A DNA stretch of 64,000 nt from Desulfobacula sp. (GCA_023701135.1 JAMPXP010000018.1:42286-106285), one strand, 5' to 3'; counted from the first letter of the stretch, positions 4,207 to 60,763 are shown. Translations and numbers: made by a program. Notes: generated by a model not told the origin, from the sequence alone.

Positions 4207-6906
4207 TCAGGATTTTGATTCCTCAGCATCAATCAAGTCTTTATGCTCAATAATCAATTCATATTCTGAACTTTCCGGAACCCGGTTGATACGAAAACCG
4301 AGTTTTTTCCCCAGTTTCAGCATCTGGGTATTTTCAGCCAGAACGACGCCGTTAACGCGTTCAAGGCCTTTATCCCACGCTGCTTTCAAACATTGCCCCA
4401 ATAAGGCTGCCCCGATGCCTTTGCCCTGCCATCCATCGGTGATGGCCATGGCAAATTCACCCTGTTTTCCATCAAGATAATCAATGATCCGGCAAACCCC
4501 CACCATTTTTCTGTCCTTGTCCGTTCCCATGAGGGCCACCAGGGCAATCTCCCGGTCATAATCAATCTGGGTCAATTTGATCAGCATTTCCTTTGAAAGC
4601 TTTTTCATGGGGGAAAAAAATCTCATATACACACTTCTGGGGGACAGGGAATTAAAATGCTCGATCAAAAGGTCTGCATCACTGGGCCGGATGGGGCGGA
4701 TAAAGAAGTCCTGGCCGTCCACACTCTGCAATGTGGATTCATACTGCCAGGGGTAGGAGCTGATAATGAGGTGCCTGGGTCTTGGAACCGCTGAAGGGCC
4801 GATCAGAACCCTGGCGTCTACGGCCATCATCTCTCCGTTCTTCACCATGAGCGGGTTAATATCCAGGGCTTGAATTTCAGGAAAATCCGTGACCAGCCTT
4901 CCAACCCGGATCAAAAATTCCTCTACCATGGCCATACCGGCCGGGGGAAGATTTCTAAATCCCTTGAATACCCTTGATATTCGCGTCTTTTCAATCATCT
5001 GCCGGGCCAGGGGCCGGTTCAGGGGCGGCAGGCCCATGGCCGTGTCCTTATAGACCTCGGTCAGGATTCCTCCCATACCGAAAAGAAGAACAGGACCGAA
5101 ATGATCGTCTTTTTTGGCGCCGATGATGAGTTCATAATCCGCCTTGGGCTGCATTTTCTGAACCGACACCCCTCTTATCCGGGCATCCGGCGCAAACGCC
5201 CTGGCGCTTTTCATGATCCCGGCATAGGCGGCCATGACCTCTGCCGATGTTTTCAAATCCAGAACCACTCCATTACAGTCGGATTTGTGCAGGATATCTT
5301 TGGAACAGATTTTCAGAACCACCGGAAATCCGATCTGCTCGGATATTTCCGCAGCCATTTGCTCTGAATCGGCCATTTTTGTCACATTGGCAGGAATTCC
5401 ATAGGATTTCAAAAGTTCCTTGGCCCCGATTTCCGTAAGACTGGTTTCTCCCGCAGCAACTGCCTCATGAATGATCTGCCTAGCCTTCTGGCGGTTGATC
5501 ACCAGTTTGGTATCGGTCCTGACCGGAATCTCCTGGAGCATTTCAATATGTTTGCCGTATTGATAAAGATTTTTAAAGGCCCGGACCGCTCTTTCGGCGG
5601 AATCATAGGTTACAATACCGGCTTCATTAAAAACTTTTCTTGAGCTTTCAACATTGATTCCGCCGATCCAGGCGGTAAAAACAGGACAGGGAAAGGTTTT
5701 TATCTCCTCTGAAAGGGCCTTTGCCAGGCCCAGGATATCCATGGTACCGACGGGTGAGCAGATCAGGAGCAAGGCATCGGTTTCCGGTGCATTGGCGCAG
5801 ATCCGGGCGGTTTTAAGGTAAATTTCCCTTCCTGAATCCCCAAGGATGTCGATGGGATTTCCCCGGCTCCAGTTGGCCGGCAGAATCCGGTCCAGTTGAC
5901 CCAGGGTTTCCGCTCCAAGCTGGGCCGGTTCAATGCCGTGGGCGGAGAGAGCGTCCGCCGCCATGACACCGGGCCCTCCGGCATTGGTAATGATGGCAAG
6001 GCCTGAACCACCTGGCCGCCGCTGCTTTGCAAGGAATTCGGTACAGTCGAACAGTTCTTCAAATTCATTGACCCTCAGTATCCCGGCACGCTGAAATGCC
6101 GCATCATACAAGGCATCTTCCCCGGCCATGGCCCCGGTATGGGAGGCGGCTGCCATGGCTCCGGCCTTGGACCGGCCGGCCTTCAGGACAATAATGGGTT
6201 TCACCCGGGAAACGGCCCTGGCCGCACTCATGAAATTCCGGATATGGGTGATGTTTTCCATATACATGACAATGCTGCCCACGGAATTTAAGGAGCCGAA
6301 ATAATCGATCATATCGGCAAAATCCACATCCAGCATGGAGCCGAGGCTGACAAAATGACTAAATCCCACATGGTTTCGATGGGAAATATCCAGCACCGAG
6401 GTGCACACGGCCCCGCTCTGGGATAAAAAGGCAATCTTTCCGGGTAAGGGAGAAAGGTGGGCAAAGCTGGCGTTTAAAGATATGCCTGTATTGACAAACC
6501 CAAGGCAATTGGGACCGATGATCCTCAGGTTATTTTTTTTAGCCGTCTGAAGGATCGTCTCTTCCATCTGCCTGCCCTTGAGTCCGACTTCCTTACCGCC
6601 GGATGATATGATGACAACACCGGCAAGGCCTGCATTGCCGCAGGACTCCATGATTTCAGGCACCGTCCGGATGGGGGTGGCAATCACGGCCATATCAATG
6701 GCTGAATCTGCGTCCTCAATGCGGGCAAAGGATTTTTGGCCCATAATTTGGCTGTGTCCCGGATTTACCGGGATGATATTTCCTTTGAATCCTTGGCCCA
6801 GAAGATTTTTCATGATCAAAAATCCGACAGATCCTTCTTTTTCGCTTGCTCCGACAACAGCAACGGTTTTCGGATTAAAAAGCCTGTGCAAATTGACTGT
6901 AGTCAT
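4207..6906 (-). CDS. NDP-forming acyl-CoA ligase family protein fused to a C-terminal GNAT (Pat/YfiQ-type protein acetyltransferase)
   Basis: VAVVGAS, IIGPNCLG, SQSGA, ASHTG, NPIDILGD, ATP-grasp LDINPL, then GNAT with GWQGKGIG. Confidence 0.9.
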   Translation of the reverse strand: MTTVNLHRLFNPKTVAVVGASEKEGSVGFLIMKNLLGQGFKGNIIPVNPGHSQIMGQKSFARIEDADSAIDMAVIATPIRTVPEIMESCGNAGLAGVVIISSGGKEVGLKGRQMEETILQTAKKNNLRIIGPNCLGFVNTGISLNASFAHLSPLPGKIAFLSQSGAVCTSVLDISHRNHVGFSHFVSLGSMLDVDFADMIDYFGSLNSVGSIVMYMENITHIRNFMSAARAVSRVKPIIVLKAGRSKAGAMAAASHTGAMAGEDALYDAAFQRAGILRVNEFEELFDCTEFLAKQRRPGGSGLAIITNAGGPGVMAADALSAHGIEPAQLGAETLGQLDRILPANWSRGNPIDILGDSGREIYLKTARICANAPETDALLLICSPVGTMDILGLAKALSEEIKTFPCPVFTAWIGGINVESSRKVFNEAGIVTYDSAERAVRAFKNLYQYGKHIEMLQEIPVRTDTKLVINRQKARQIIHEAVAAGETSLTEIGAKELLKSYGIPANVTKMADSEQMAAEISEQIGFPVVLKICSKDILHKSDCNGVVLDLKTSAEVMAAYAGIMKSARAFAPDARIRGVSVQKMQPKADYELIIGAKKDDHFGPVLLFGMGGILTEVYKDTAMGLPPLNRPLARQMIEKTRISRVFKGFRNLPPAGMAMVEEFLIRVGRLVTDFPEIQALDINPLMVKNGEMMAVDARVLIGPSAVPRPRHLIISSYPWQYESTLQSVDGQDFFIRPIRPSDADLLIEHFNSLSPRSVYMRFFSPMKKLSKEMLIKLTQIDYDREIALVALMGTDKDRKMVGVCRIIDYLDGKQGEFAMAITDGWQGKGIGAALLGQCLKAAWDKGLERVNGVVLAENTQMLKLGKKLGFRINRVPESSEYELIIEHKDLIDAEESKS

Positions 6907-6977
6907 CGTTACCCCTCATCCCTTCATAAGTTCACAAGAATACCCATCCCGATTTAAAAATCGAATATCGTGCCAGG

Positions 6978-7916
6978 CTAGGGCACTATCCATACCGTCA
7001 TCTCTCTTGCCCCCTGAATGGCCTTCCAGGGAATGGACCCGATATCAAAATTGTCAACATCCGACTTTCCCTTCCGGCCAAAGACCAGGGTATCGCAATT
7101 TTCTTCCATGGCTGCGGAAATAATGGCTTCCGACCGGCTATCGGCGCCCTGGATGAGTTTAACGGTAATTCTTTTTTTCTGGATCCCGGCTTTTTCAAGC
7201 TCGCCTTCAGCACTTTGAATCGCAGCATCAAGCTCTTCAAATACCGCTTTAACAAAACCGGGCGGTTTTTTCTTCCCGGCTTTTACATCATAGAGGTTAA
7301 AATCCCTCAGCACACTGCACAGCACAACCCTGCAATCCGAATTTTGAATCATATTGGCCGTAAATGTAACGGCTCTTTTGGAACATTCCGAACCGTCAAG
7401 GGCCAGAAGCAGAGAATGATTCACCTTCTGGATGCCGGCCAGCATGATGGGAATATAACCGGCTTTTTCAACGAGCTTGGTTGAAACGCTCCCCATGATA
7501 AAGGGCAACAGGGTCCTTGACCCGCCGCGTCTTCGGATAAGAAGGGCATCATACCCTTTTTGGGCTTCGTCCATAATATCCCTTGCAATCCCGCTTTTCC
7601 TTTCGGCGATGACAATGCTGATGGCTTCGGGGTTAAATCCCGCTGCTATCAACTGCATTCTTGCTTTTTCCATGAACTCTTCCATCTGGGCTTTGTATGC
7701 GTTTTCCCAGGCATAAACGGCAGAGGTTGCTCCTGCGCTGAAGGTTTCTTTTTGCAGATCGTAATAACATACGGGAACCTTTGTAATAATATTGTGTAAT
7801 ACCAGTTTCTTTTTTAAAAACGGCTTAAAGCTGCAAAGGTACTGGACGGTTCGAAAGGCCCTTTCAGAACCGTCAAGGGCCACGAGTATTTTATTGCTAT
7901 TGTCGGCCATTATCAT
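6978..7916 (-). CDS. Universal stress protein, tandem USP domains
   Basis: ILVALDGSE and LLLALDGSE starts; MGSVSTKLV and IGSIPWKAI ends. Confidence 0.9.
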   Translation of the reverse strand: MIMADNSNKILVALDGSERAFRTVQYLCSFKPFLKKKLVLHNIITKVPVCYYDLQKETFSAGATSAVYAWENAYKAQMEEFMEKARMQLIAAGFNPEAISIVIAERKSGIARDIMDEAQKGYDALLIRRRGGSRTLLPFIMGSVSTKLVEKAGYIPIMLAGIQKVNHSLLLALDGSECSKRAVTFTANMIQNSDCRVVLCSVLRDFNLYDVKAGKKKPPGFVKAVFEELDAAIQSAEGELEKAGIQKKRITVKLIQGADSRSEAIISAAMEENCDTLVFGRKGKSDVDNFDIGSIPWKAIQGAREMTVWIVP

Positions 7917-7953
7917 TTCTCCTTTTGTAAACGGTTATATTCTATGATGAGGT

Positions 7954-8433
7954 TCAGAGTTTGGAGCGCAAACTCATTACCGGGATCGGGGAATGCCGGA
8001 AGAGTTTTTCCGCCACACTTCCGAACAAAAATCCCTCAAGATTGGATCTTCCCTTGGGTCCGAAAATCAAAAAATCAATATCTTCCATATCAATGGCTGC
8101 CAGAATTTCCACATAGGGGACCCCGTGACCAATCCGTATCCTTACTTTTTTTTCATCCAGGCTACCGGCATTTTTGACCATGGCCCTGAGTTTTAATTCA
8201 CGGCGTCCTGATTCTTCTGCCAGATGCTTTGACAGAATAAAACTGTCCGGCCGGGCCTTGTTCACTGCATGTTCAACCTGATCAATGGATTTTTGATTGA
8301 TAATATGGATGACACAAATATCGGCATTTGTGAGCCTTGATATTTTTCCCGCATATTCCAGCACCTGCCTTGAATAAAGGGAGAAATCCACGGCAGCCAT
8401 CACATTTCTGATTTTTTCGGTGCTTTCTTTCAT
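7954..8433 (-). CDS. Universal stress protein
   Basis: VMAAVDFS ... GPKGRSNLEGFLFGSVAEKLFRHSPIPV. Confidence 0.92.
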   Translation of the reverse strand: MKESTEKIRNVMAAVDFSLYSRQVLEYAGKISRLTNADICVIHIINQKSIDQVEHAVNKARPDSFILSKHLAEESGRRELKLRAMVKNAGSLDEKKVRIRIGHGVPYVEILAAIDMEDIDFLIFGPKGRSNLEGFLFGSVAEKLFRHSPIPVMSLRSKL

Positions 8434-8434
8434 T

Positions 8435-8932
8435 TTATTTCTCCCTTTTAAACTTGGCCCTTTCCCTGACGCTGACCACCGGAACCGGTGAATGACGGAA
8501 TACTTTTTCCGCCGCGCTTCCGAACAGGACCCGTGAAATATTGCTCCGGCCTTTGTTGGCCATTACCACAAGGTCAATATGTTCAGTTTCTATGGCCTTG
8601 AGGATACATTCAAAGGGAATCCCCACATCAATTTTGATTTCCATCCTGGACTTTTGATCAAAAAACCCATCCTTTATCATTTGTTTTAATTTTTCAGATC
8701 TTTCGTTTTTCAAATCCCGGATATAATCATCCGTATTGATAACATTGGTAAATGAACCGGGATAATAGCTGAAAACCATTTCCGCACCGGCAATATCTCT
8801 CTGGTTAATGACGTTGAAGACCAGAATCTGTGTGTCGGTCCCCTGGGAAAGGGCTACGGCATATTCCAGAACCATGGGTGAGTATTGGCTGAAATCAACA
8901 CAGGCGAGGATTTTTCGAATATTCTGATTCAT
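8435..8932 (-). CDS. Universal stress protein
   Basis: KILACVDFS ... KGRSNISRVLFGSAAEKVFRHSPVPV. Confidence 0.92.
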   Translation of the reverse strand: MNQNIRKILACVDFSQYSPMVLEYAVALSQGTDTQILVFNVINQRDIAGAEMVFSYYPGSFTNVINTDDYIRDLKNERSEKLKQMIKDGFFDQKSRMEIKIDVGIPFECILKAIETEHIDLVVMANKGRSNISRVLFGSAAEKVFRHSPVPVVSVRERAKFKREK

Positions 8933-48494: not shown

Positions 48495-48903
48495 GATATC
48501 CGCCTTGGAGTAAAAAATGCGCTATTCTATTCTAAAAGCAAGTGACAAACAATTGATTTTTCATATTTTATTGGGATCCGGTATATTATCCTTCTATAGG
48601 TAACCGGCGGGCAGGCCACTGGCAGATATGCAGATACCATCGGCTTATTGCTATTGACTATGTGGAAAAGAGAAGTCATCAACCTGTTGAAACGACAGTG
48701 GGAAAATATCTCTTTGATCAGAAATCCGGGTAAATTGCACCTGGTAAGGCTTGAGCGTATTTTCGGATTCGGAATGTAATTCTGATTAAAAAAATCTCTT
48801 ACCGGGCAATGACCTTTAATCAGCCCTGAATCACAGATTAGGGTCTGGGTTTCTGATTTTTAATCGTTCTTTGGTCTTCGGGCAGGGCTGCCGGTACGGG
48901 CGC

Positions 48904-49230
48904 GCATTTGCCACAGGATTCTTCGGTGAGAAAATTGATGAAATACCTTGCCACGTCCACCATGCAGGTATTGGTAATCTTGCCCACGAGGGAGAAGATC
49001 TTGGTGCCCTTGCTGGACTCGGTGCCGATGGAGGGGAACCAGTCGGCCCCGTTATTGATGATCAGGGGCACATTGGCCCAGGTCTCGACGTTGTTGAGGG
49101 CCGATGGTCTTTCCCAGAGGCCTTTGACATTGGACCGGACATATTTGGGCCGGGGTTCCCCGGCTTTTCCTTCCAGGGAGGCCATGAGGGCCGTGGATTC
49201 TCCGCAGACAAAGGCGCCAGCCCCCTTGGT
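48904..49230 (-). pseudogene. NuoF/HydB-type flavin-NADH-binding subunit fragment with internal deletion
   Basis: GAGAFVCGESTAL..GEPRPK..LNNVETWANVP..GTKIFSLVGKITNT is joined directly to CMVDVARYF..ESCGKC, then the homology breaks off. No N-terminus. Confidence 0.85.
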
Positions 49231-49268
49231 GCACATGGGCCTTAACCTCAAAAAAGACGGAACTCTGC

Positions 49269-49604
49269 CTATGCTTCTCCCCGGCCGGGGAAAATATCCT
49301 TAAAGACGTCGTCATCGGCCCGGATGCACCGGTCTTTCAATTCCCGGTAGCATTCCATCAGGGCCCTGCCCTCATCGGTCAGTTTTGTTCCCGTAATCTT
49401 GTCGGCCAGGACCACGGGCTTTCCGAAATTTTTTTCCGTGGACTTGATCTTGCTCCACACGCTTTTATAGGACATTTTCAGCTCTTTGGCGGTCTGGTTG
49501 ATGGACCCTGTCCGGTCAATGGATTCAAGGATGGCCAACCGGCCTGAACCCATGATGATGCCGCCGTCGTCGGCAATAAGAAACTGGCTGGATCTGAGCT
49601 TCAT
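49269..49604 (-). CDS. modE: ModE-family regulator, N-terminal winged-helix only
   Basis: GSGRLAILESIDRTGSINQTAKELKMSYKSVW...TKLTDEG; no TOBE/molybdate-binding domains. Confidence 0.85.
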   Translation of the reverse strand: MKLRSSQFLIADDGGIIMGSGRLAILESIDRTGSINQTAKELKMSYKSVWSKIKSTEKNFGKPVVLADKITGTKLTDEGRALMECYRELKDRCIRADDDVFKDIFPGRGEA

Positions 49605-49802: not shown

Positions 49803-50411
49803 ATGGAAGATTTTGAAACCCTTCTGAAAGGATCGGCCGCCGCCCACGGCCACCTCTGCCCCGGACAGGTGGTGGGGGTCCGCATGGCCATGGAGGGATG
49901 CCGGCTTCTCGGCCTGGACAACCCGAGGGAACTGCCCCAGATCAAAAGCCTCATCGTGTATGTGGAAATGGACCGGTGCGCCACCGATGCCATTTCCTTT
50001 GTCACCGGCGTGAAATTGGGCCGGAGGTCCCTGAAATTCATAGACAACGGCATCATGGCCGCCACCTTTGTCCATCTTGAGACGGGCAAGGCCTTCAGGA
50101 TCGTATCCCGGGAAACCGCCAGGGATCTGGCTCACACCTATGCCCCGGAAATCGGGGATAAACACCAGCAGCAACTGGAAGCCTATAAGCGAATGAGTCT
50201 TGAGGACCTGTTCCGCATTGAAGAAGTCCGGGTAACGGTAAAGGCCTCGGATATGCCCGGCCCCACACGGTTCAAAGCCGTCTGCCAAAACTGCGGTCAG
50301 GTGGTCCGGGACAAGCGGGAAGTCATGAAAAACGACCGGATCCTCTGCAGGCCCTGCGCCCTGGGAACCTATTACCAACCCGTCACTCCACAAGGAAAGA
50401 AACATGTGTAA
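49803..50411 (+). CDS. FmdE-family protein with C-terminal Zn finger
   Basis: HGHLCPGQVVG, VEMDRCATDAI, CQNCGQ...LCRPC. Confidence 0.88.
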   Translation: MEDFETLLKGSAAAHGHLCPGQVVGVRMAMEGCRLLGLDNPRELPQIKSLIVYVEMDRCATDAISFVTGVKLGRRSLKFIDNGIMAATFVHLETGKAFRIVSRETARDLAHTYAPEIGDKHQQQLEAYKRMSLEDLFRIEEVRVTVKASDMPGPTRFKAVCQNCGQVVRDKREVMKNDRILCRPCALGTYYQPVTPQGKKHV

Positions 50412-51459
50412 AACCAGAAGAGACCCGGCCTTCAGAACCATACCCGTTGAAGAGGCCGTGGGCGCCACCCTGGCCCATGACGTGACCGAGGTCATTTCCG
50501 GAGAATCCAAGGGCCCGGCCTTTAAAAAAGGCCATAAAATAAGTTCCGGGGATTTGTGCCGGCTCATGCGCATGGGCAAAAACAATCTCTATATTCTGGA
50601 TCTCGCCGCCGATGAGGTCCATGAAGATGACGCCGTGCTGGAGCTGGCCGCTGCCCTGTCAGGACCCGGTGTCACCTTTTCCGCTTCTCCGGCGGAGGGA
50701 AAACTGGAACTGAGGGCCGACTATCCCGGTCTGTTCAAGGTCAAGGTTCAGGCCCTGGAAGAATTCAATATGCTCCGGGATGTGATGTGCGCTTCCATCC
50801 ACACCCATGCGGCCGTCAAAGCAAACCAGAGCCTTGCGGCCACCCGGGCCATCCCCCTGGTGATTCACCGGACCGACCTTGATGCCGCCGTAAATTTTGC
50901 CCGGGAGAATTACCCTATTTTCAGCGTCAAAATCTTCCAGCCGCTGAAAATCCGGCTCATCATCACCGGGAATGAGGTCTATAAGGGACTGATCCAGGAC
51001 CGTTTCAAGGCCATTGTAGAGCAGAAGACAACGGATTTGGGGGCCGTCATGGAAGAAGCCGTCATCCTTCCCGACGACCGGGACATGATCAGCCGACAGA
51101 TCCGGAACTATCTTGAAAAGGATACCGACCTCATCATCACCACCGGCGGCATGTCCGTGGACCCCGACGATGTGACAAAGGCCGGGATTGAGGATTCGGG
51201 CTTTGAACAGATCCACTATTCCGCAGCCGTGCTTCCGGGGGCCATGTTCCTTTTGGGATATCATAAAAATACGGCCGTCATGGGGCTTCCGGCCTGCGGC
51301 CTCTATCACAGGACCACGATTTTCGACCTGATCCTGCCGAGAATCATGGCCGGGGAAAAACCGGGACCGAGGGATCTGGCCCGCCTGAGCCACGGCGGTC
51401 TCTGCCTCAACTGCAAGACGTGCAGGTTTCCTGCCTGTTCCTTTGGAAAATCAGGATAA
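50404..51459 (+). CDS. Molybdopterin-binding (MoeA/MoCF-biosynthesis domain) protein with C-terminal Cys cluster
   Basis: LAHDVTE, ITGNEV, TTGGMSVDPDDVT, PGAMF, HGGLCLNCKTCRFPAC. Confidence 0.82.
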   Translation: MCKTRRDPAFRTIPVEEAVGATLAHDVTEVISGESKGPAFKKGHKISSGDLCRLMRMGKNNLYILDLAADEVHEDDAVLELAAALSGPGVTFSASPAEGKLELRADYPGLFKVKVQALEEFNMLRDVMCASIHTHAAVKANQSLAATRAIPLVIHRTDLDAAVNFARENYPIFSVKIFQPLKIRLIITGNEVYKGLIQDRFKAIVEQKTTDLGAVMEEAVILPDDRDMISRQIRNYLEKDTDLIITTGGMSVDPDDVTKAGIEDSGFEQIHYSAAVLPGAMFLLGYHKNTAVMGLPACGLYHRTTIFDLILPRIMAGEKPGPRDLARLSHGGLCLNCKTCRFPACSFGKSG

Positions 51460-51551: not shown

Positions 51552-52325
51552 ATGAAAAAAATAGGAACTGTTTATCTTTTAATCGCTTTACTTTACACAG
51601 GACTATCTTCTTTTGCCGTTTCAGCTTCAGCAAAAGAAATCACCGTATCGGCATCCATTGTCCTCAAAAACGCATTTGAGGAAATCGGCAAACGCTATGA
51701 ATCCAACACCAACACCGGGTGCGTCTTCAATTTTGGAGCCGCGGGAAACCTTCTCAAGCAGATTGCCGGAGGAGCCCCTGTGGATGTCTTTGCCTCTGCC
51801 GCAAAAAAATTTATGGATGAGGCCGACAGTGAAGGGCTGACTATTGCCGGCACCCGTGCCGAATTCACCTCGAACAGTATGGTTCTGGTTGTTCCGGCCG
51901 GTTCAAAAACAGCTCTCAATTCCTTTGAGGGATTGAATTCCGCAACGATCAAAAAGATTGCCGTGGGAAACCCAAAGACTGTTTCAGCCGGAGAATATGC
52001 CGAAGATGTGTTCCATTTTTATAAGATTTCCGCTTCCATTCAAGATAAATTCATTTACACGGAAAATGTACGGCAGGTTCTGGATTATGTGGCCAGAAAC
52101 GAAGTGGATGCAGGCGTTGTCTTTGCCACGGATGCCGCTGTCCGGACAAAAGAGGTAAAGATCGTGGCTGCGGCCCCTGAAACAAGCCATAAACCGGCTG
52201 TTTATACCGTAGCCGTGGTCAAGGGGTCAAAATATGAGGCCGAGGCCAGAGCCTTCATCGCCCTGCTTCTTTCCGGCGAAGGTCAGGCCGTTCTCAAAAA
52301 TTATGGTTTTAAAGCTGTTCGATAG
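51552..52325 (+). CDS. modA: Molybdate ABC transporter substrate-binding protein
   Basis: Signal peptide; APVDVFASA, IAVGNPK, NVRQVLDYV..EVDAG. Confidence 0.92.
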   Translation: MKKIGTVYLLIALLYTGLSSFAVSASAKEITVSASIVLKNAFEEIGKRYESNTNTGCVFNFGAAGNLLKQIAGGAPVDVFASAAKKFMDEADSEGLTIAGTRAEFTSNSMVLVVPAGSKTALNSFEGLNSATIKKIAVGNPKTVSAGEYAEDVFHFYKISASIQDKFIYTENVRQVLDYVARNEVDAGVVFATDAAVRTKEVKIVAAAPETSHKPAVYTVAVVKGSKYEAEARAFIALLLSGEGQAVLKNYGFKAVR

Positions 52326-52333
52326 GGCTTGAC

Positions 52334-52996
52334 ATGGAATCCGTTCTTTTTTCCGTGCGCCTGTCCCTGCAGGTGGCCTGCCTGTCAACCCTCCTGATCG
52401 TAGTGACCGGGATACCCATAGCCTATCTCCTGGCCCGGAAAGCGTTCAGGGGCCGGGAGGTGCTGGACATGATCTTCACCCTGCCCCTAGTGCTGCCGCC
52501 TACGGTCACGGGCTATTATCTGATTATCATTTTTGGCAGAAACGGACTCCTGGGCGGCTTTATTTACCAATGGACCGGGTGGACCATCATGTTCACCTGG
52601 TATGCAGCCGTGCTCGCCTCCTATGTGGTGGCCCTGCCCCTCCTGATCAAGACCGCCAGGGCCGCCATTGAATCCGTCGATAAAAATCTCATCAATGCCT
52701 CTTACACCCTGGGGCATTCCGAAATCAACACGGCCCTGAAGGTGATTCTTCCCCTTGCCAAACGGGGGGTTATCGCCGGGGCCGTGCTCGCCTTTGCCCG
52801 TTCCATGGGAGAATTCGGGGCCACCCTCATGCTGGCCGGAAACCTGCCGGGCAAGACCGAGACCATGCCCATTGCCATCTACAGCCTGTCCAACAGCGGA
52901 GAATGGAACAAGGCCCATGGGCTGGTAATGCTCATGACCCTGATATCCGGGCTTTTTCTCTACATTGCCAACCGGTATTCAAAAAGGACATTCTGA
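52334..52996 (+). CDS. modB: Molybdate ABC transporter permease
   Basis: LPLVLPPTVTGY, FARSMGEFGAT..AGNLPGKT. Confidence 0.95.
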   Translation: MESVLFSVRLSLQVACLSTLLIVVTGIPIAYLLARKAFRGREVLDMIFTLPLVLPPTVTGYYLIIIFGRNGLLGGFIYQWTGWTIMFTWYAAVLASYVVALPLLIKTARAAIESVDKNLINASYTLGHSEINTALKVILPLAKRGVIAGAVLAFARSMGEFGATLMLAGNLPGKTETMPIAIYSLSNSGEWNKAHGLVMLMTLISGLFLYIANRYSKRTF

Positions 52997-53703
52997 TGGG
53001 GCTTTACGTCAATCTGCAAAAAAAGGTCAATGGATTTTCTCTGGGCATTGAATGGGAAATCGGCCATGAACCGGCTGTGCTCTTCGGGTTTTCCGGGGCC
53101 GGGAAATCCATGACGCTTCAGTTGATTGCCGGGCTTATGAAACCGGATTCCGGAGTTGTCCACCTGGACGACACCCTGTATTTTGATTCCCTGTCCAAAA
53201 CGGATCTGCCTCCCCAGAAAAGGCTGTTCGGCTATGTGTTCCAGGACCTGGCCCTCTTCCCCCACATGACGGTATGGCAGAACATCCTCTACGGGGCCCC
53301 CCTTCTCTCCGGAAATGAAAAGGCAGACCGGGCCCATGACCTGATCCGGTCCTTCAAACTCTCCGGGCTTGAGAAAAGATACCCGTCCGAGATATCCGGG
53401 GGGCAGAAGCAGCGGGTGGCCTTTGCCCGGGCCCTGATCCGGCGGCCCAGGATGCTGCTCCTGGATGAGCCCTTTTCCGCCCTGGACCGTCCCCTCCGCC
53501 TGGAGATGCGGGATTTTTTAAAAGAGGTACGGGAAACCTTCAATATCCCCGCCATCCTTGTGACCCATGATTTTGACGAGGCCGCCGCCGTCTCGGATCA
53601 GATCATCATTTATGAACATGGCAGAATCACCCAGACAGGCTCCCCCGAGCAGGTTAAAACCGCTCCGGCCAACGGCTATGTATCCCATCTGATTTCAAGC
53701 TGA
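52996..53703 (+). CDS. modC: Molybdate ABC transporter ATP-binding protein
   Basis: GFSGAGKS, ISGGQKQR, LLLDEPFSALD, VTHD; ATG overlaps the modB TGA. Confidence 0.9.
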   Translation: MGLYVNLQKKVNGFSLGIEWEIGHEPAVLFGFSGAGKSMTLQLIAGLMKPDSGVVHLDDTLYFDSLSKTDLPPQKRLFGYVFQDLALFPHMTVWQNILYGAPLLSGNEKADRAHDLIRSFKLSGLEKRYPSEISGGQKQRVAFARALIRRPRMLLLDEPFSALDRPLRLEMRDFLKEVRETFNIPAILVTHDFDEAAAVSDQIIIYEHGRITQTGSPEQVKTAPANGYVSHLISS

Positions 53704-53764: not shown

Positions 53765-54994
53765 TTATTTTCTGATCTCAAAGGCATCCACCGTTTCTTT
53801 GGCCAGGGTATAGGCCCGATACTGCAAGATATTGTCTTCCACCCGGACGGACTGGAAGCTGATGGTGCGGGACAGGGTCCTGGCCATGAGATGGTCATAC
53901 CGGTCGCCGGGCGGATAAAATTTAGGCCCGCTGTTGGAAATGATATAAACAACTCCCTTATCTTTTTCGGAAACGGGCTGGTGATTTTTCAGGGAAACGG
54001 TCCGGGCATAGCCGTGGTCATGGCCCTGGAGGACCAGATCAACGGAATGCCGGTCAAAAACGGGAACCAGAAGATCCTGGAAATCGGTATGGGTTTTGCG
54101 CTGTGAAATGGGATACGCGGGCTGGTGGATGACCACAATGGTCCAGGCTTGTGGGTTGTTGGATAAAACGCCTTCAAGCCAGAGGGCCTGTTCCGGAATT
54201 TTTTCATTCCCGTTCAACACCACCACCCGCAGGCCCTGGTAATCAAAGCGGAACACGGTTTCCTCAAGGCCTTCGGGCCCGTTCTCCGGCAGGGTGAACT
54301 GGGGCCGCCACAGGGAAGTGATGCGGCGCTGGTCGGCCGTGGTTTTCCGCGGGTCCGGGTATTCGTGGTTGCCCGCCGCAGGAACCAGGGGCATCGTCCG
54401 GGAGATCCATCCCAAGGCTGAAAAAAAATCACCCCAGAGCCGGTCATCGGGACCGTTGTCCACCATGTCCCCGGCAAAGAGCCAGAACCTGGCCTCGGGC
54501 TCTTTCTGAAAAGCCACCCTGAAAACCTGGGAACACATGGAGAACACCTCTTCCTGGACATCTCCGAAATACAGAAAGGTAAAGGGCTCCGGCTGGTCCT
54601 GGGCGGTTTTGAACTGGTTCCATTCGCTCCAGGCCGGGTCCTCCCCCACCCGGTAGGCATAGACTGTTCCCGGAAGCAGGCCGCTAAAGACAACGGAATG
54701 CTGAAAAACACCGGTTTTGTCATCCAGGGCCACGGGGGTGGAAAGGGCCGGAAAGGCCCCTGGCCTGATCTCCGGGTTCAGGAGATCCGATACCGGGATG
54801 ATTTCAGCCCTGGGGGAAAGGCCTTTCTCCCTTGTCCGCCAGGTAACGGCCTGGCTGCTGAAAGGGGTTTCGGTAAGATTCAGAATGATCCGTTCGGGAA
54901 GGGCCGCATCCCCGGCAAGGCCCCGGCCGGCACACAGGAGTAGACAAAGGCCTGCAACGATCATATAGCTTTTTATCCGTGGAAATCCTGTCAT
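53765..54994 (-). CDS. Exported purple-acid-phosphatase-like metallophosphoesterase (FN3 + calcineurin-like)
   Basis: Signal peptide; GDVQ, GDMVD, GNHE, IHQP, GHDH metal motifs. Confidence 0.88.
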   Translation of the reverse strand: MTGFPRIKSYMIVAGLCLLLCAGRGLAGDAALPERIILNLTETPFSSQAVTWRTREKGLSPRAEIIPVSDLLNPEIRPGAFPALSTPVALDDKTGVFQHSVVFSGLLPGTVYAYRVGEDPAWSEWNQFKTAQDQPEPFTFLYFGDVQEEVFSMCSQVFRVAFQKEPEARFWLFAGDMVDNGPDDRLWGDFFSALGWISRTMPLVPAAGNHEYPDPRKTTADQRRITSLWRPQFTLPENGPEGLEETVFRFDYQGLRVVVLNGNEKIPEQALWLEGVLSNNPQAWTIVVIHQPAYPISQRKTHTDFQDLLVPVFDRHSVDLVLQGHDHGYARTVSLKNHQPVSEKDKGVVYIISNSGPKFYPPGDRYDHLMARTLSRTISFQSVRVEDNILQYRAYTLAKETVDAFEIRK

Positions 54995-55156: not shown

Positions 55157-55247
55157 AAACCATAAATTTCGACGCCCTGCCTGGACGGGAAGCGGGCATA
55201 CAGATATAATGGATGCGTTTTGATCCATTCATGCAAAGGGGGCTTAT

Positions 55248-57167
55248 ATGCGTCATCCGGAAATCGATACATGGAACGGAAAGGCCCGGGACCCGGATCT
55301 ATCCGTTCTGGATATGGAAAAGTGGCCGGGGCGGACGACACTCAGGGCCATCATGGGATGGAACGGCATCAAAGTCTGGGATAAGACCGTGGATGCTGTG
55401 GCTCTCCTGGCCGCCTATCTGGAAAAGACCAAAGATGAGTCCTGCGGCCAATGCACCCCCTGCCGCCTGGGCACCGTGCAGATGGCGGGCCTGGCCAAAG
55501 GCCTGACACAAGGCCGGGGCAAGACCGAGGACCTGACCCGCCTTAAATTTCTGGCCGTCCAGATCAGCCGGACCGCCCGGTGCGATATCGGCCGGACCCT
55601 GGCCCGCCCGGTTCTGGACCTGATGGAATCCTTTAGCAAAGATTTTGAGGCAGCAGCCAGGGGTACAAAAAGGGTGGAAGAGGGCCAAGCGTATACCTCC
55701 CTGGTCACCGCCCCCTGCGTGGCCGCCTGCCCCTCCCATGTGGATGTCCCCTTTTACCTGGAAAACATCCGCATGGACCGCTGGTCGGAAGCCATGGACA
55801 AGGTGCGGGAGGACTGCCCCATGCCCGGCACCATCGGCCGGGTCTGCGTGCGGCCCTGTGAAACCCGATGCCGGCGGGGCAACCTGGATGAGGCTTTGGC
55901 CATCAAAGGATTGAAACGCTTTCTGGCGGACCGGGAAATGGAGGGAAAACTGACTCCAAAGCCCTTGGCTCCGCCCAAGCGGCCTGAACGAGTGGCCATT
56001 GTGGGTGCGGGCCCGGCCGGTCTTTCCTGCGCCTATTACCTGGGACGCCAAGGCATAAAAACCACCATTTTCGAGGCCCAGGAAGGTCCGGGTGGCATGG
56101 CGGCCTACGGTATTCCGTCCTACCGCCTTCCCAGGTCAGTCATCGCCCACGAGGCCGCCGGAGTCGAAGCCCTGGGAGCCGTCATCCGATATAATACCCG
56201 TGTGGGCCGGGACATCACCCTGGAAGACCTGGCCGGACAGGGGTATAAGGCCGTGTTCGTAGGAGCCGGCGCCCCCGGTCCCACCCGCATGAACTGCAAG
56301 GGGGAGGACCAGGGGTATGAGAATTTCATGCCCGGTGTGGATTTCCTGGCCCGGGCCGCCCGGGGGGAAAAACCCCTTAACGGCGACCGGGTGGCGGTGG
56401 TCGGCGGCGGCAACGTGGCCATGGACTGTGTCAGAACCGCCCGGCGCCTGGGTTTTACCGATGTGAACCTCATCTACCGCCGCACGGAAGCCGAGATGCC
56501 GGCCGATGCCCTGGAAATTAAGGAAGCCCGGGAAGAAGGCGTGAATTTCCACATGCTCATGGCCCCCATCGAGGTCCAGGCCGATGCCGACGGAAAGGTC
56601 TCGGGCCTCAAATGCCTGCGCATGGAACTGGGAGAACCGGACAAAAGCGGCCGGCGGCGGCCCGTGCCCATTGAAGGCTCGGAATTTGTCATAGCCTGCG
56701 ACGCCGTCATCCCGGCCATCGGCCAGGCCTGCGCCGTGGACCAATTCCTGCCCCAGGCCGTGGTCAGTGAATGGAACACCCTGGTGGCGGATAAAACCAC
56801 GGGCCAGACCCAGGTGCCCCATATCTTTGGCGGCGGAGACTGCGCCACCGGGCCGGATATCCTGATCCGCGCCCTGGCGGCCGGCAAATACGGGGCTAAA
56901 TCCATTGTCCGTTACCTGGACACCGGGGATTGCACGCCCGGGCCTGAAGACCTGATGGAAGCCCTGACCGGAAATCCGGCCCTGTTTGAAACCGACCCGC
57001 CCCTGCCTTACCCCGGGGTGACCCGGCGGGAGGAAGCTTCGGTTCTGGCGCCCGAAACCCGGATTCAGAGCTTTGACGAGGTGGAAGCCGGATTATCCCC
57101 GGCCCAGGCCAGACAGGAGGCCAACCGCTGCCTTCGCTGTTACCGTATTCTTGTGGCTGCCCTCTAA
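55248..57167 (+). CDS. FAD/NADP(H) oxidoreductase subunit: NuoF-type 4Fe-4S N-terminus + GltD/SudA-like core (SfrB-like)
   Basis: AIMGWNG, ESCGQCTPC, APCVAACP, GRVCVRPCE..CRR, GAGPAG, GGGNVAMD, YRRT, GGDC..G, EANRCLRC. Confidence 0.88.
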   Translation: MRHPEIDTWNGKARDPDLSVLDMEKWPGRTTLRAIMGWNGIKVWDKTVDAVALLAAYLEKTKDESCGQCTPCRLGTVQMAGLAKGLTQGRGKTEDLTRLKFLAVQISRTARCDIGRTLARPVLDLMESFSKDFEAAARGTKRVEEGQAYTSLVTAPCVAACPSHVDVPFYLENIRMDRWSEAMDKVREDCPMPGTIGRVCVRPCETRCRRGNLDEALAIKGLKRFLADREMEGKLTPKPLAPPKRPERVAIVGAGPAGLSCAYYLGRQGIKTTIFEAQEGPGGMAAYGIPSYRLPRSVIAHEAAGVEALGAVIRYNTRVGRDITLEDLAGQGYKAVFVGAGAPGPTRMNCKGEDQGYENFMPGVDFLARAARGEKPLNGDRVAVVGGGNVAMDCVRTARRLGFTDVNLIYRRTEAEMPADALEIKEAREEGVNFHMLMAPIEVQADADGKVSGLKCLRMELGEPDKSGRRRPVPIEGSEFVIACDAVIPAIGQACAVDQFLPQAVVSEWNTLVADKTTGQTQVPHIFGGGDCATGPDILIRALAAGKYGAKSIVRYLDTGDCTPGPEDLMEALTGNPALFETDPPLPYPGVTRREEASVLAPETRIQSFDEVEAGLSPAQARQEANRCLRCYRILVAAL

Positions 57168-57203
57168 GGGAGAGTGGACTATTTTAAGATGAAAGGAATC
57201 CAA

Positions 57204-59963
57204 ATGCCGATTCTCAGCATTAACCATAATAGCCTGGAATTCCAGCCGGGCATGACCATTCTGGAAGTGGCCCGGAAAAACAATATCCATATCCCGACCC
57301 TGTGCCATTTGGCCGGTTGCACGCCCACGGGCCAGTGCCGGATCTGCGTGGTGGAAGTGGGCGGGACCGACGAGCTTTTACCGGCCTGCGAGACCCCGGC
57401 CGGTGAAGGCATGAAGATCATGACCCACAGCCCCGGGGTTCATGAAGCCAGGAAAACCATCATCGAGATGCTGGTGGCCTCCGGAGCCCATAACTGCCTG
57501 GTCATGCAATCTCCGGCCGATTCCTGGAATTCCGACCAGAAGGGCATCATGGAACAGCCATGGCACGGCGGCCTTTGCCCGGCCTATGGTGACTGCCGCC
57601 TCCAGGACCTGGCCGTTGAATACGATGTGCATGTAAAAGAGGACCATCTGGCCTGGGAAGGCCATCCCCTGGATGACGCCACTCCCATCATTGTAAGGGA
57701 TTTTTCCCGGTGCATCCTCTGCGGCCGGTGTGTTCAGGCCTGCAACGACGTCCAAGTCAACCTGGCCATTACCCCGCCCTGGGGCCGCCGGGCCGACCAT
57801 CCGGAAGGCTGGTATCCGGCTGCGGATTACGAGGCCTGCACCCATTGCGGGGAATGTGTCCAGGCCTGTCCGGTGGGCGCCCTGTTTGACCGGAAGAGTT
57901 TCGGAAAAGCCCTGGCCAACGAGATGGACCACATCCGGACCACCTGCCCCTATTGCGGGGTGGGCTGCCAGCTCCTGCTCCACGTCAAGGACGGAAAAAT
58001 CCTCAAGGTCACGGGGGTGGAAGACGGATCTCCCAACAAGGGCAGACTCTGCGTCAAAGGCCGGTTCGGCTTTGATTTCATTTATTCCGAAGAACGGCTG
58101 ACAAGCCCTTTGATCAAGGAAAACGGAGAATTCAGGAAAGCCTCCTGGGATGAGGCCCTGGACCTGGTGGCCCAAAAATTTACAACCATCATCCAAGAAA
58201 GCGGTCCCGACGCCCTGGCCGGGGTTTCCTGCGCCAGGAGCATCAACGAAGACTCCTACCAGATGCAGAAACTGTTCAGGGCCGTGTTCAAAACCAATAA
58301 TATTGATCACTGCGCCCGAACGTGACATGCCCCGTCTGTCGCCGGGCTGGCGACCACATTCGGATCAGGCGCCATGACCAATTCCTTTTCGGAATTTGCC
58401 AAGGCAAAACTCTTTCTGGTCATCGGGTCCAATATGACCGAGGCCCATCCCGTGGCCGCCACCTTTTTGAAAAATGCGGTGCAAAACGGGGCCCGGCTCA
58501 TCGTGGTGGACCCCAGGAAACACAGGCTCACGGATTTTGCCGATATCCATCTCCAGTTAAAGGTCGGCTGTGATATCGCCCTTCTCAACGGCATCATGCA
58601 TGTGCTGATCAAAGAAGATCTCTATGACAAGGATTTTGCCCTGAACAAATGCACCGGGTTCGAGGCCCTGGAAAAAACCGTTGCCGAATATCCACCACAG
58701 CGGGCTGCGGAAATCTCCGGAGTGGATGAAGACACCATTATCCGGACGGCCCGGCTCCTGGCCTCCATCAAACCGGCCATGGCCTGTTATACCCTGGGCA
58801 TTACCGAGCACACCTGCGGAAAAAACAATGTCATGACCGTTGCCAATCTTCAGATGCTCCTCGGCAACCTGGGCATGGAACTGGGCGGGGTCAATCCCCT
58901 CAGGGGCCAGAACAATGTCCAGGGCGCCTGTGACATGGGAGCCCTGCCCAATGTATTCCCCGGCTACCAGAGGGTGGATGACCCGGCGGCAAGGAAAAAA
59001 TTCGAGTCGGCCTGGCAGGTGACGGATCTTCCGGACAAGCCGGGCCTCATGATTCCCGAGATGATGCACGGCCTGACCAACGGCAAGGTCCGGGGGTTTT
59101 ATATCTTCGGCGAAAACCTGGCCAACACGGAACCGGATATGAACAAGGTGGCTGAGGAACTTTCTTCGGCCGAATTCATCGTGTGCCAGGATCTCTTTCT
59201 CACGGAAACCACCCGGTTCGCCCATGTGGTGTTGCCGGCGGCGGCCTGGAGTGAAAACAACGGCACCTTTACCAACAGCGAACGACGGGTGAGCCGGGTC
59301 CGCACGGCCAGCCCGCCCCCGGGCCAGGCCAAACCCAACTGGTGGATATTCAAGGAAATTGCAAAGCGCTTCGGCCATGACTGGCCCTCCTCCAGCGGCA
59401 AAGAATTATGGGACAATGAAATCAGCATCCTGGCCCCGGCCCTGGGCGGCATCAAATACGGCCGCATTGAACAGGACGGCCTTCAATGGCCCTGCCCCAC
59501 CCCGGATCATCCCGGCACCGCCTTCCTGCACAAGGATGGGAATTTCACCCACGGCAAGGGCGTTTTCATGCCTGCCGACTGGACTCCCCCGGCCGAAGTG
59601 CCCGATGCCCAATACCCCTTTGTCCTCAGCACGGGAAGAAGGCTTTACCATTACCACACCCGGACCCAGACCGGCCGGTGCGATGGGCTCAATGACCTTC
59701 TGGGGGAAGAACGGGCCGATATTTCCCAGACCGACGCCGCGCAACTGGGCATCACCCAAGGAGAGCGCATCCGGGTGAAATCCCGGCGGGGGGAGGTCTG
59801 CGTCACCACCCATGTCACACCGGAAGTGCCGCCGGGAATGGTCTGGATGGCCTTTCATTTTACAGAAGGCAATGCCAACTGGCTCACCCACGCCGCCCTT
59901 GATCCCTTTACCCTGACGGCGGAATACAAGGCCTGCGCGGTTCAGCTTGAAAAAATAACCTGA
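57204..59963 (+). CDS. fdhA: Selenocysteine-containing Mo/W-bisPGD formate dehydrogenase alpha subunit (TGA 58323-58325 = Sec)
   Basis: ORFs 57174-58325 and 58374-59963 are in frame. Readthrough gives [30 protein letters not shown]. Also 2Fe-2S and 2x4Fe-4S motifs, CPYCGVGC, LRGQNNVQGACDMG, TNSERR, EYKACAV. Confidence 0.93.
58326..58354 (+). promoter_or_regulatory. Bacterial SECIS element
   Basis: Stem GTCGCC(58338-43)-GGGCT-GGCGAC(58349-54) begins 12 nt after the UGA, the geometry known for bacterial fdh SECIS. Confidence 0.8.
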
Positions 59964-59971
59964 TCCGGGGT

Positions 59972-60763
59972 TTACTGCCGGAACCGCCCCAGAACCGGGT
60001 AATGGTCCGACGGGTAGCGGCCGGAAAAAGAATCCGTGATGATCTTTCTTTGGCGCAGTTCCATCCCGCGGTACAGGATCCAGTCAATATGTTCCAGGGT
60101 TTCTTCCCCCCTGAATTGATGAAAGGTGGTGGCATGCCCCTTGTCAAAGACTTCGGCGAACCCCTCTGCCCTGAAGACGGCATCGGCTTTTCCGCCGGGG
60201 TTTGCATTAAAATCCCCGGTGATGACCACGGGGCAGTCCGGCGGAAAGTCGGACAAAAAATCCATGACCAAATGGGCGCTTTTTTCCTGAACGGCCTCGT
60301 CAAAATCAAAATGGGTATTGACCATAATGATCCTGCGGGAATCCTTTTCAAAAAGACCGATGACGCATTGCCGGGGCCATTTGCTGCCCGGCAGCCGGGA
60401 TTCGGCCTGGGGTGTATCGCTGATGAAATGATGCCCGTGCCTCAGGCAGGTCCAGGATTTGTGGTAAAAGATCAGATTGCTCTGCCACCGCTCCCTGTCG
60501 GGATTGTGCCAGCCGATGACATCATGACCGTCCAAATTATTTATCAAAAACCGGGTCTGGAAATGATTGGCCTCCTGGATGCCCAGAAAGCTTGCCGGAT
60601 ACCGCTTGAGCACCTCGGCAAACATAGCTTCCCTGTTTTGCCATGCGTTTTCCCCGTCCTCGGCCAGGCCGAACCTAAGATTCATGGTCATGACGGAGAA
60701 TTCATTTTCCTGTGGAAATCCGGTTTCCGCCATTTCCGCCTCCGGGGGGTCTGCTGTCTTCAC
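59972..60763 (-). CDS. Endonuclease/exonuclease/phosphatase (EEP) family hydrolase
   Basis: MTMNLR, GIQEA, VNTHFD, TGDFNA, IDWILY, YPSDHYPV. Confidence 0.9.
   Translation of the reverse strand: MKTADPPEAEMAETGFPQENEFSVMTMNLRFGLAEDGENAWQNREAMFAEVLKRYPASFLGIQEANHFQTRFLINNLDGHDVIGWHNPDRERWQSNLIFYHKSWTCLRHGHHFISDTPQAESRLPGSKWPRQCVIGLFEKDSRRIIMVNTHFDFDEAVQEKSAHLVMDFLSDFPPDCPVVITGDFNANPGGKADAVFRAEGFAEVFDKGHATTFHQFRGEETLEHIDWILYRGMELRQRKIITDSFSGRYPSDHYPVLGRFRQ

Follow-up and report, generated by a model that had tools for sequence, protein, structure and literature searches.

Two-subunit, NADP-linked selenium formate dehydrogenases are a long-known type of enzyme. The FdhAB enzyme of Moorella thermoacetica (Moth_2312-2314, EC 1.17.1.10) reportedly goes back to Yamamoto et al. 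(1983), and the related SfrAB of Geobacter sulfurreducens, an NADPH oxidoreductase, is said to have been described by Kaufmann and Lovley (2001) and Coppi et al. (2007); to our knowledge, Geobacter SfrA is without a catalytic site. The Moorella protein, an NADP-dependent W-Se-Fe formate dehydrogenase purified in 1983, is an alpha2beta2 enzyme with subunits of 96 and 76 kDa (PMC13040438). Its beta subunit is of the SfrB type, combining Fe-S domains with an NADP-binding flavoprotein (PMC5736913; PMC13040438). According to a 2026 study, the gene for its beta subunit is sfrB2, and its alpha subunit comes from two gene calls, sfrA2 and fdhF3, in that order; expression of these genes is high, and the study also measured formate:NADP+ activity (PMC13040438). 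The KEGG pair K05299/K15022 stands for NADP-dependent formate dehydrogenase, and 50 of the 55 Desulfobacterota species covered by a 2026 survey had homologues of the cytoplasmic Fdh alpha subunit known from Moorella, with a non-monophyletic distribution (PMC12827605). Geobacter SfrA is described as only slightly similar to NuoG and formate dehydrogenase and has a role in NADPH-linked redox balance (PMC7483475; PMC9888536). Here we analyze the adjacent genes fdhB and fdhA, at positions 55248-59963 (+ strand) of a 64,000-nt stretch of DNA from Desulfobacula sp. (the window); the source genome comprises 4.8 Mb on 42 contigs, with a completeness of ~99%.

The fdhB-fdhA pair very likely encodes a formate dehydrogenase/CO2 reductase with two subunits, soluble and located in the cytoplasm, which belongs to the Moorella FdhAB type (EC 1.17.1.10) and is no new enzyme class. 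E-values reach down to 1e-241, excluding chance. The 639-amino-acid fdhB product (55248..57167, +) is an SfrB-type Fe-S flavoprotein based on Pfam, NCBIfam and PDB matches, and fdhA (57174..59963, +) encodes a NuoG-type formate dehydrogenase alpha subunit that is open throughout except for one in-frame TGA, a selenocysteine (Sec) codon. The two genes are co-directional, and the fdhB stop is separated by 6 nt from the earliest start codon that fdhA could use. The fdhA product is 929 amino acids long when read from GTG 57174 and 919 when read from ATG 57204; the latter is the likely true start, since it has an AAGGA ribosome-binding site and corresponds to the start in the gene call of a 92%-identical homologue. 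The TGA at 59961-59963 is the true stop. Predicted masses are about 70 kDa for fdhB and 101 kDa for fdhA. Upstream of fdhB, a consensus scan found a sigma-70-like promoter, TGGACG-17-TATAAT (55182..55210, +; 10/12 matches), which is a pattern match only. The locus has three features of the Moorella type: an SfrB-type beta subunit, a cytoplasmic MopB alpha subunit with Sec, His and Arg, and beta-alpha order within an operon.

The alpha subunit has the full set of formate dehydrogenase elements. Its N-terminal part holds motifs for a [2Fe-2S] cluster, a His-ligated [4Fe-4S] cluster with a 24-amino-acid insertion, and two further [4Fe-4S] clusters, and its catalytic part consists of the MopB [4Fe-4S] site and a domain for Mo or W bound by bis-pyranopterin guanine dinucleotide. 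The catalytic residues are present as HCARTU384H385 and as R577 within RGQNN (residues 577-581). On the Fdh-alpha equivalog profile TIGR01591 (curated cut-off, 666 bits) the protein scores 802 bits; Pfam matches are Molybdopterin, Molydop_binding and Fer2_4, with full-length pterin domains, and the closest PDB matches are FdhF of HDCR, W-containing FoDH1, Fdh of the Hdr complex and FdsA. No twin-arginine (Tat) signal was seen in the translated N-terminus, which was read by eye and not with a signal-peptide program, and no membrane-subunit, NuoE or NuoF gene adjoins the pair in the window.

The TGA at 58323..58325 (+) is read as Sec (U384), followed by His385, on the evidence of its alignment column and of the tRNA-Sec and SelB encoded in the source genome (SelB, 353 bits, above the curated cut-off). 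The corresponding column of the alignment also reads TGA in L032, the ortholog from a congener, in three homologues (L117, L120 and L036) and in two paralogues from the source genome itself; a Desulfobacter homologue (L119) has TGC (Cys). A hairpin resembling a Sec insertion sequence (SECIS), GUCGCC-GGGCU-GGCGAC, lies at 58338..58354 (+); counted from the first UGA base, it begins 15 nt downstream. It is found at the same position in all Sec-containing homologues compared, where changes on both sides preserve the pairing (GUGGCA/UGCCGC, GUAGCC/GGCUGC, GUCGCA/UGCGGC); in the Cys homologue it is weaker, with just four pairs left. An in-frame UGA, a downstream SECIS hairpin and the Sec machinery, as expected of a bacterial selenoprotein, are thus all present, and the open reading frames (ORFs) called at 57174-58325 and 58374-59963 are a single selenoprotein. 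Together, SelB, tRNA-Sec and the Sec codon with its SECIS element imply that the predicted fdhA protein contains selenium, and the retention of codon and SECIS argues for a selected catalytic site.

In the beta subunit, Pfam recovers three domains in the following order: NADH_4Fe-4S (PF10589, the C-terminal [4Fe-4S] domain of NuoF; residues 54-135, E = 7e-23), Fer4_20 (PF14691, the dicluster domain of GltD and dihydropyrimidine dehydrogenase; residues 153-232, E = 5e-22) and a Pyr_redox_2 core (PF07992; residues 248-546, E = 1e-29). The flavin mononucleotide (FMN) domain, Complex1_51K, was not found in the protein by Pfam. For residues 31-141, the PDB matches are to the C-terminal region of HydB/NuoF subunits from bifurcating hydrogenases; this NuoF C-terminal domain carries an N3-like [4Fe-4S] cluster (C66, C69, C72 and C112) and the strings RAIMGWNG...VDAVALLAAYL...SCGQCTPC (residues 33-72). 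The Fer4_20 domain accounts for two [4Fe-4S] clusters, and is followed by a GxGxxG site for flavin adenine dinucleotide (FAD; residues about 251-258), an NADPH site, GGGNVAMD...YRR (residues 386-412, with YRR at 410-412), and a C-terminal RCLRC (residues 628-631). Over residues 155-631, the protein has PDB matches to the GltD-like regions in StnC, 9bov_A (named ‘Molybdopterin oxidoreductase’) and NfnA (E = 1e-100 to 3e-106), and the core also matches NfnB and NfnI-L (range across the Nfn/Stn matches, 1e-78 to 1e-106). The loop that binds the nucleotide, VAVVGGGNVAMD...LIYRRTEAEMPA, can be aligned residue by residue with four NADPH-binding subunits: NfnB of T. maritima (4ylf_B), NfnI-L of P. 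furiosus (5jca_L), StnC (8oh5_C) and NfnA (9n5u_A). Y410-R411-R412, the Fe-S cysteines and the C-terminal R-C-x-R-C are invariant in an alignment of 27 full-length family members. Since the GGGNVAMD...YRR loop is shared with NADPH-binding NfnB, NfnI-L and StnC, fdhB is predicted to be specific for NADP(H).

These results agree closely with a first-pass annotation of the window, which had described an SfrB-like subunit with a GltD-type core and YRR motif beside a Sec-containing formate dehydrogenase with Sec-His, RGQNN and NuoG-like Fe-S clusters. Every sequence feature it had quoted for the two subunits was recovered at the coordinates it gave. Its remark that periplasmic signal, membrane anchor and NuoE/F partner are missing also holds, as far as the by-eye reading and the adjoining genes go. 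The proposal that the pair links formate/CO2 to NADP(H) is well supported by an SfrB-type beta subunit next to an alpha subunit with all predicted catalytic residues. The idea that it is a new, catalytically complete SfrAB counterpart is not supported, since the Moorella NADP-dependent enzyme was already known. The proper name for the products is NADP-dependent formate dehydrogenase (fdhB, fdhA), rather than ‘FAD-dependent oxidoreductase’ or ‘NADPH-Fe(3+) oxidoreductase’, and the main yield of the analysis is the merged selenoprotein annotation together with the accessory Mo/formate dehydrogenase cassette described below.

Homologues of fdhB are numerous. A word-indexed search in which 8,000 candidates were scored returned 7,959 significant homologues, the best being 92% identical, with Desulfobacula, Desulfobacter and Desulfosarcina among the taxa named, and an exhaustive search counted 4,367 representatives at E <= 1e-30. 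A look-up of ten representatives named Deltaproteobacteria, Duodenibacillus, Turicimonas, Laribacter and similar taxa, with no Moorella member among them. In JGI, either ‘formate dehydrogenase (NADP+) beta subunit’ or plain ‘formate dehydrogenase beta subunit’ is the name of many homologues, the 92%-identical one among them; a 60%-identical Desulfosarcina homologue is named ‘NADPH-Fe(3+) oxidoreductase subunit beta’ by NCBI. Close homologues are followed by a formate dehydrogenase alpha gene in the congener genome G021 (95% identity, Sec) and on the metagenome contigs L120 and L121 (92%, Sec), as well as in L117 (72%, Sec) and L119 (63%, Cys), L118 (65%) being the exception; the beta-then-alpha layout is common to L117, L120 and L121, and no membrane-subunit genes adjoin the pair in L117, L119 or L120. 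More distant SfrB-like genes reside beside HndD-like hydrogenases, in complex I operons or in fusions, from which it follows that the beta subunit is a modular NADPH adaptor; its partner in the window is a true formate dehydrogenase.

Two of these other settings are of interest in themselves. On a 6.9-Mb contig of a metagenome-assembled genome (MAG), L118, positions 6001-8719 carry a 65%-identical fdhB followed only by a 245-amino-acid Fer2/Fer4 protein, which corresponds to the N-terminal Fe-S part of the alpha subunit without the pterin domain and adjoins genes for the glycine-cleavage P-protein and lipoate; this may be a natural ‘SfrAB-like’ reduction of a formate dehydrogenase. In a Syntrophobacterales MAG (L037, 3699-10248), a complex I operon has the order NuoD, SfrB-like protein (46% identical), degenerate NuoG-like protein and NuoH, such that the SfrB-like and NuoG-like genes replace nuoEF between nuoD and nuoH. 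In this NuoG-like protein, Leu-Glu takes the place of Sec-His, and Ala that of the Arg.

Compared with Moorella FdhAB, the window pair is alike in having two subunits, with the beta gene first and a Sec alpha gene that gene callers split at the UGA, and in its cytoplasmic location and SfrB-type beta subunit, the window beta being without an FMN domain. The sizes are similar in kind, about 70/101 kDa predicted for the window pair versus 76/96 kDa for the purified Moorella subunits. The Moorella enzyme contains W, whereas the neighbours of the window pair are of the Mo type (modABC); and unlike Moorella, the host is a Desulfobacteraceae member of the sulfate-reducer type that carries this enzyme as an accessory, away from its Wood-Ljungdahl cluster. 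With Geobacter SfrAB, after which homologues are named, the pair shares the beta architecture and the pairing with a NuoG/formate dehydrogenase-like alpha subunit (PMC7483475). The window fdhA, by contrast, keeps Sec, His and Arg and exceeds the Fdh-alpha cut-off.

The same GltD-type NADPH module occurs in Stn (Sporomusa-type Nfn) and NfnABC transhydrogenases (8oh5, 9bov, 9n5u; E = 1e-100 to 1e-106). In Stn/Nfn and in a fused FdhAB of Aeromonas (L112), however, the modules are joined in one chain, whereas in the window they are encoded by separate genes. The MopB part of Stn and Nfn is not a formate dehydrogenase, and these complexes have a NuoF-like HydB subunit with FMN; the window beta keeps just the C-terminal Fe-S domain of NuoF. 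NAD-dependent enzymes of the FdsABG/FdhAB-NuoEF type, such as Rhodobacter capsulatus FdsA (6tg9), resemble the window pair in the length and Fe-S content of their NuoG-like alpha subunit (E = 4e-182), but they rely on NuoF- and NuoE-like FMN subunits and NAD+, where the window pair has no FMN domain and a GltD-type FAD/NADPH module.

Comparison with the fused proteins also bears on how the subunits may meet. The 24-amino-acid insertion, LVMQSPADSWNSDQKGIMEQPWHGGL, lies in the His-ligated [4Fe-4S] motif of fdhA (window 57480-57570, residues about 108-133); it is kept in Desulfobacterota relatives and absent from an Alistipes alpha subunit and from the NuoG-like protein of the same genome. In fused StnC and in the 1458-amino-acid Aeromonas L112 protein, the His-cluster motif of the NuoG-like part is interrupted by the whole GltD module, which separates its ‘H-x-C’ half from its ‘C-x5-C’ half, and the insertion in fdhA is at exactly this site. 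StnC has been described with two Cys-rich junction motifs, which the fdhA insertion fits (PMC7483475). Because fused relatives carry the GltD module at that place, the comparison suggests that the beta subunit docks at the insertion loop of fdhA.

In the mechanism that we propose, a bis-pyranopterin site holding Mo or W, with Sec384 as ligand and with His385 and Arg577, would oxidize formate or reduce CO2. Electrons would travel along the Fe-S chain of the alpha subunit (MopB [4Fe-4S], two ferredoxin-type [4Fe-4S], His-ligated [4Fe-4S], [2Fe-2S]) and then through those of the beta subunit to its FAD, where hydride would be exchanged with NADP(H). The association of the subunits, the metal and the physiological direction of the reaction are here what we infer from the genes.

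Several points weigh against this assignment. It is based on sequence, and the link to Moorella comes from published papers, KEGG-derived database names and shared architecture. Mo versus W cannot be read from the sequence, and a TupB-like tungstate permease is encoded on another contig (C17) of the genome. Adjacency of the two genes alone does not prove a stable complex, since SfrB-type subunits are promiscuous, as seen in complex I, beside HndD-like hydrogenases and in L118. For the selenoprotein call, the 63-nt stretch after the UGA folds no better than shuffled sequences (z = 0.45), and an Rfam scan of the window at gathering thresholds matched no family, so that the SECIS assignment depends on the comparison of homologues.

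The kinship of the beta core with bifurcating NfnB/NfnI-L and with StnC and NfnA (E = 1e-78 to 1e-106) could be taken to mean that the pair is an electron-bifurcating or -confurcating formate dehydrogenase, in which the NfnB-like FAD couples formate/CO2, NADP(H) and low-potential ferredoxin. The three [4Fe-4S] sites of the beta subunit could form two exit paths, and with NADPH as the sole reductant CO2 reduction runs uphill under standard conditions. GltD and dihydropyrimidine dehydrogenase contain the same flavin module, however, and we know of no report that either bifurcates. There is no ferredoxin, NuoE, FMN-bearing NuoF or NfnA-like gene in the operon or nearby, a second nucleotide site was not found in fdhB-fdhA, and the Moorella enzyme, built from the same type of subunits, forms NADPH from formate and NADP+ without ferredoxin in the listed assay reaction (PMC13040438). 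We therefore regard bifurcation, which the first-pass annotation had raised as a possibility, as unlikely; nothing beyond the homology of the flavin module to NfnB speaks for it. A particular three-substrate version, in which formate/CO2, NADP(H) and ferredoxin are connected by one path through the NuoF N3-type cluster and another through the GltD diclusters, is decidedly unlikely. If it were true, the whole K05299/K15022 family, the Moorella enzyme included, would have an overlooked ferredoxin-coupled mode, and NADPH-driven CO2 reduction would be energetically feasible.

The remaining alternatives concern the partner rather than the flavin. Were the pair no free two-subunit enzyme but the input module for a larger complex with genes at another locus (a complex I/Ech-type membrane complex or an Hdr-type partner), the SfrB-like and NuoG-like pair inside the L037 complex I operon would be a precedent, and a NuoF gene remnant does adjoin the cassette; yet no membrane-subunit genes lie beside the pair here or in L117, L119 and L120, the one NuoH-like locus examined, 70 kb away, looks Ech/Hyc-type by ORF sizes alone, and the Moorella enzyme is a soluble alpha2beta2 protein (PMC13040438), making this reading very improbable. 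It is extremely improbable that the pair works like Geobacter SfrAB, as an NADPH:acceptor oxidoreductase (with ferredoxin or another carrier) in which formate oxidation is absent or marginal. The NCBI name of the 60%-identical Desulfosarcina homologue points that way, and the L118 beta subunit (65%), being paired only with the 245-amino-acid Fe-S remnant, indicates that the module can work without a pterin site. In the window, by contrast, fdhA keeps Sec-His, the RGQNN Arg and full-length pterin domains and scores above the Fdh-alpha cut-off, the Sec codon is retained with its SECIS, and the cassette carries Mo uptake and cofactor genes. The NADP-dependent formate dehydrogenase of the Moorella type thus remains the preferred identity of the pair.

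The pair lies in a block of raised GC content of about 11.5 kb (~49.0-60.5 kb of the window; GC 0.52-0.65, versus 0.34-0.47 in the flanks). At the left end is a small ModE-like/LysR-type helix-turn-helix regulator (49269..49604, -; Pfam HTH_1), followed by an FmdE-domain protein with a C4 zinc finger (49803..50411, +; Pfam FmdE, E = 8e-30) and a MoeA-like molybdenum-cofactor biosynthesis protein (50404..51459, +; Pfam MoCF_biosynth, E = 9e-21, with NCBIfam matches below cut-offs). Next is the molybdate ABC transporter modABC (51552..53703, +; NCBIfam), with modA at 51552-52325 (TIGR01256, 178 bits) and modB at 52334-52996 (TIGR02141, 245 bits) above their cut-offs, and modC, which ends at 53703 and probably starts near 52996, below its cut-off (219 bits). 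A purple-acid-phosphatase-like metallophosphatase (53765..54994, -; Pfam Pur_ac_phosph_N and Metallophos) separates modC from fdhB, and an endonuclease/exonuclease/phosphatase (EEP)-family gene (59972..60763, -; Pfam Exo_endo_phos) forms the right end.

The block occurs in the same order on L120 and L121 (92% amino acid identity), where the flanks differ from those of the window and an IS200-type transposase is nearby. DNA homology between the window and L120 begins at the ModE-like gene, the EEP-family gene keeps its position in L120 and L121, and an FmdE gene also adjoins fdhBA in L117 and L120. The metallophosphatase slot of the otherwise collinear L120 holds just a 65-amino-acid ORF; because the gene is not present at that spot, it is a local insertion within the cassette and probably no part of the formate dehydrogenase system. 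An fdhB ortholog was found in only one of 24 same-genus genomes (G021), the rest having paralogues of 41-44% identity or nothing above threshold, which suggests horizontal acquisition; the block is probably an accessory, horizontally acquired cassette. In an empty-site comparison, the left flank was conserved solely in congener G010 (79-81% identity, split over two contigs), where the TetR gene alone matched and synteny in this diverse genus was poor.

The modB of the cassette is the sole modB-like match in the genome in a search with a TupB model. Since the TupB-like permease is encoded elsewhere, it is plausible that fdhBA may be a Mo-dependent isoenzyme linking formate to the NADPH pool. 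An accessory enzyme of this kind would tie formate/CO2 to the NADPH pool in a sulfate-reducer-type genome. Its position beside the only modABC detected hints at the use of Mo/W isoenzymes, and the combination of the two in one cassette hints at the horizontal spread of a self-sufficient formate dehydrogenase unit. Just outside the left cassette end (window 48838-49251, -) is the 137-amino-acid remnant of a NuoF/HydB-like gene, which keeps pieces (GAGAFVCGESTAL) of the FMN-binding domain and, of the N3-cluster domain, the beginning (ESCGKCAP), and has an internal deletion; both of its Pfam matches are below cut-off.

Three cytoplasmic Sec formate dehydrogenase alpha subunits exceed the TIGR01591 cut-off in the genome. 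Two are on contig C18, within about 20 kb of formyl-THF (tetrahydrofolate) synthetase (Fhs) and AcsB, and lie in the Wood-Ljungdahl cluster; the window fdhA, on another contig, is the third, and the pair is an accessory enzyme. At G000:C18:74648-79650, a 920-amino-acid Sec alpha subunit (48% identical to fdhA) is divergent from the gene for a 682-amino-acid protein with an RnfB-like N-terminus (by eye) bearing ferredoxin-type Cys motifs and a BLAST-confirmed GltD-like core that is 28% identical to fdhB; by its sequence, this protein is a putative different NAD(P)H adaptor for the ‘core’ formate dehydrogenase. The NuoH-like locus 70 kb from the pair, on the same contig, appears to have six or seven subunits and an Ech/Hyc-type rather than a complex I organization (ORF sizes alone), and contig C42 carries a second NuoH-like match. 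A ‘headless complex I’ as a partner in trans is disfavoured by the look of the one locus examined, judged by ORF sizes alone. At G000:C4:36439-41760 (L004), a 1060-amino-acid fusion of a complete NuoF (FMN domain, SLBB and N3 cluster) with a GltD-type NADPH module precedes a 702-amino-acid NuoG-like protein, whose alignment to fdhA ends at residue 445. The fusion resembles a full-length form from which SfrB-type beta subunits could derive by loss of the FMN domain.

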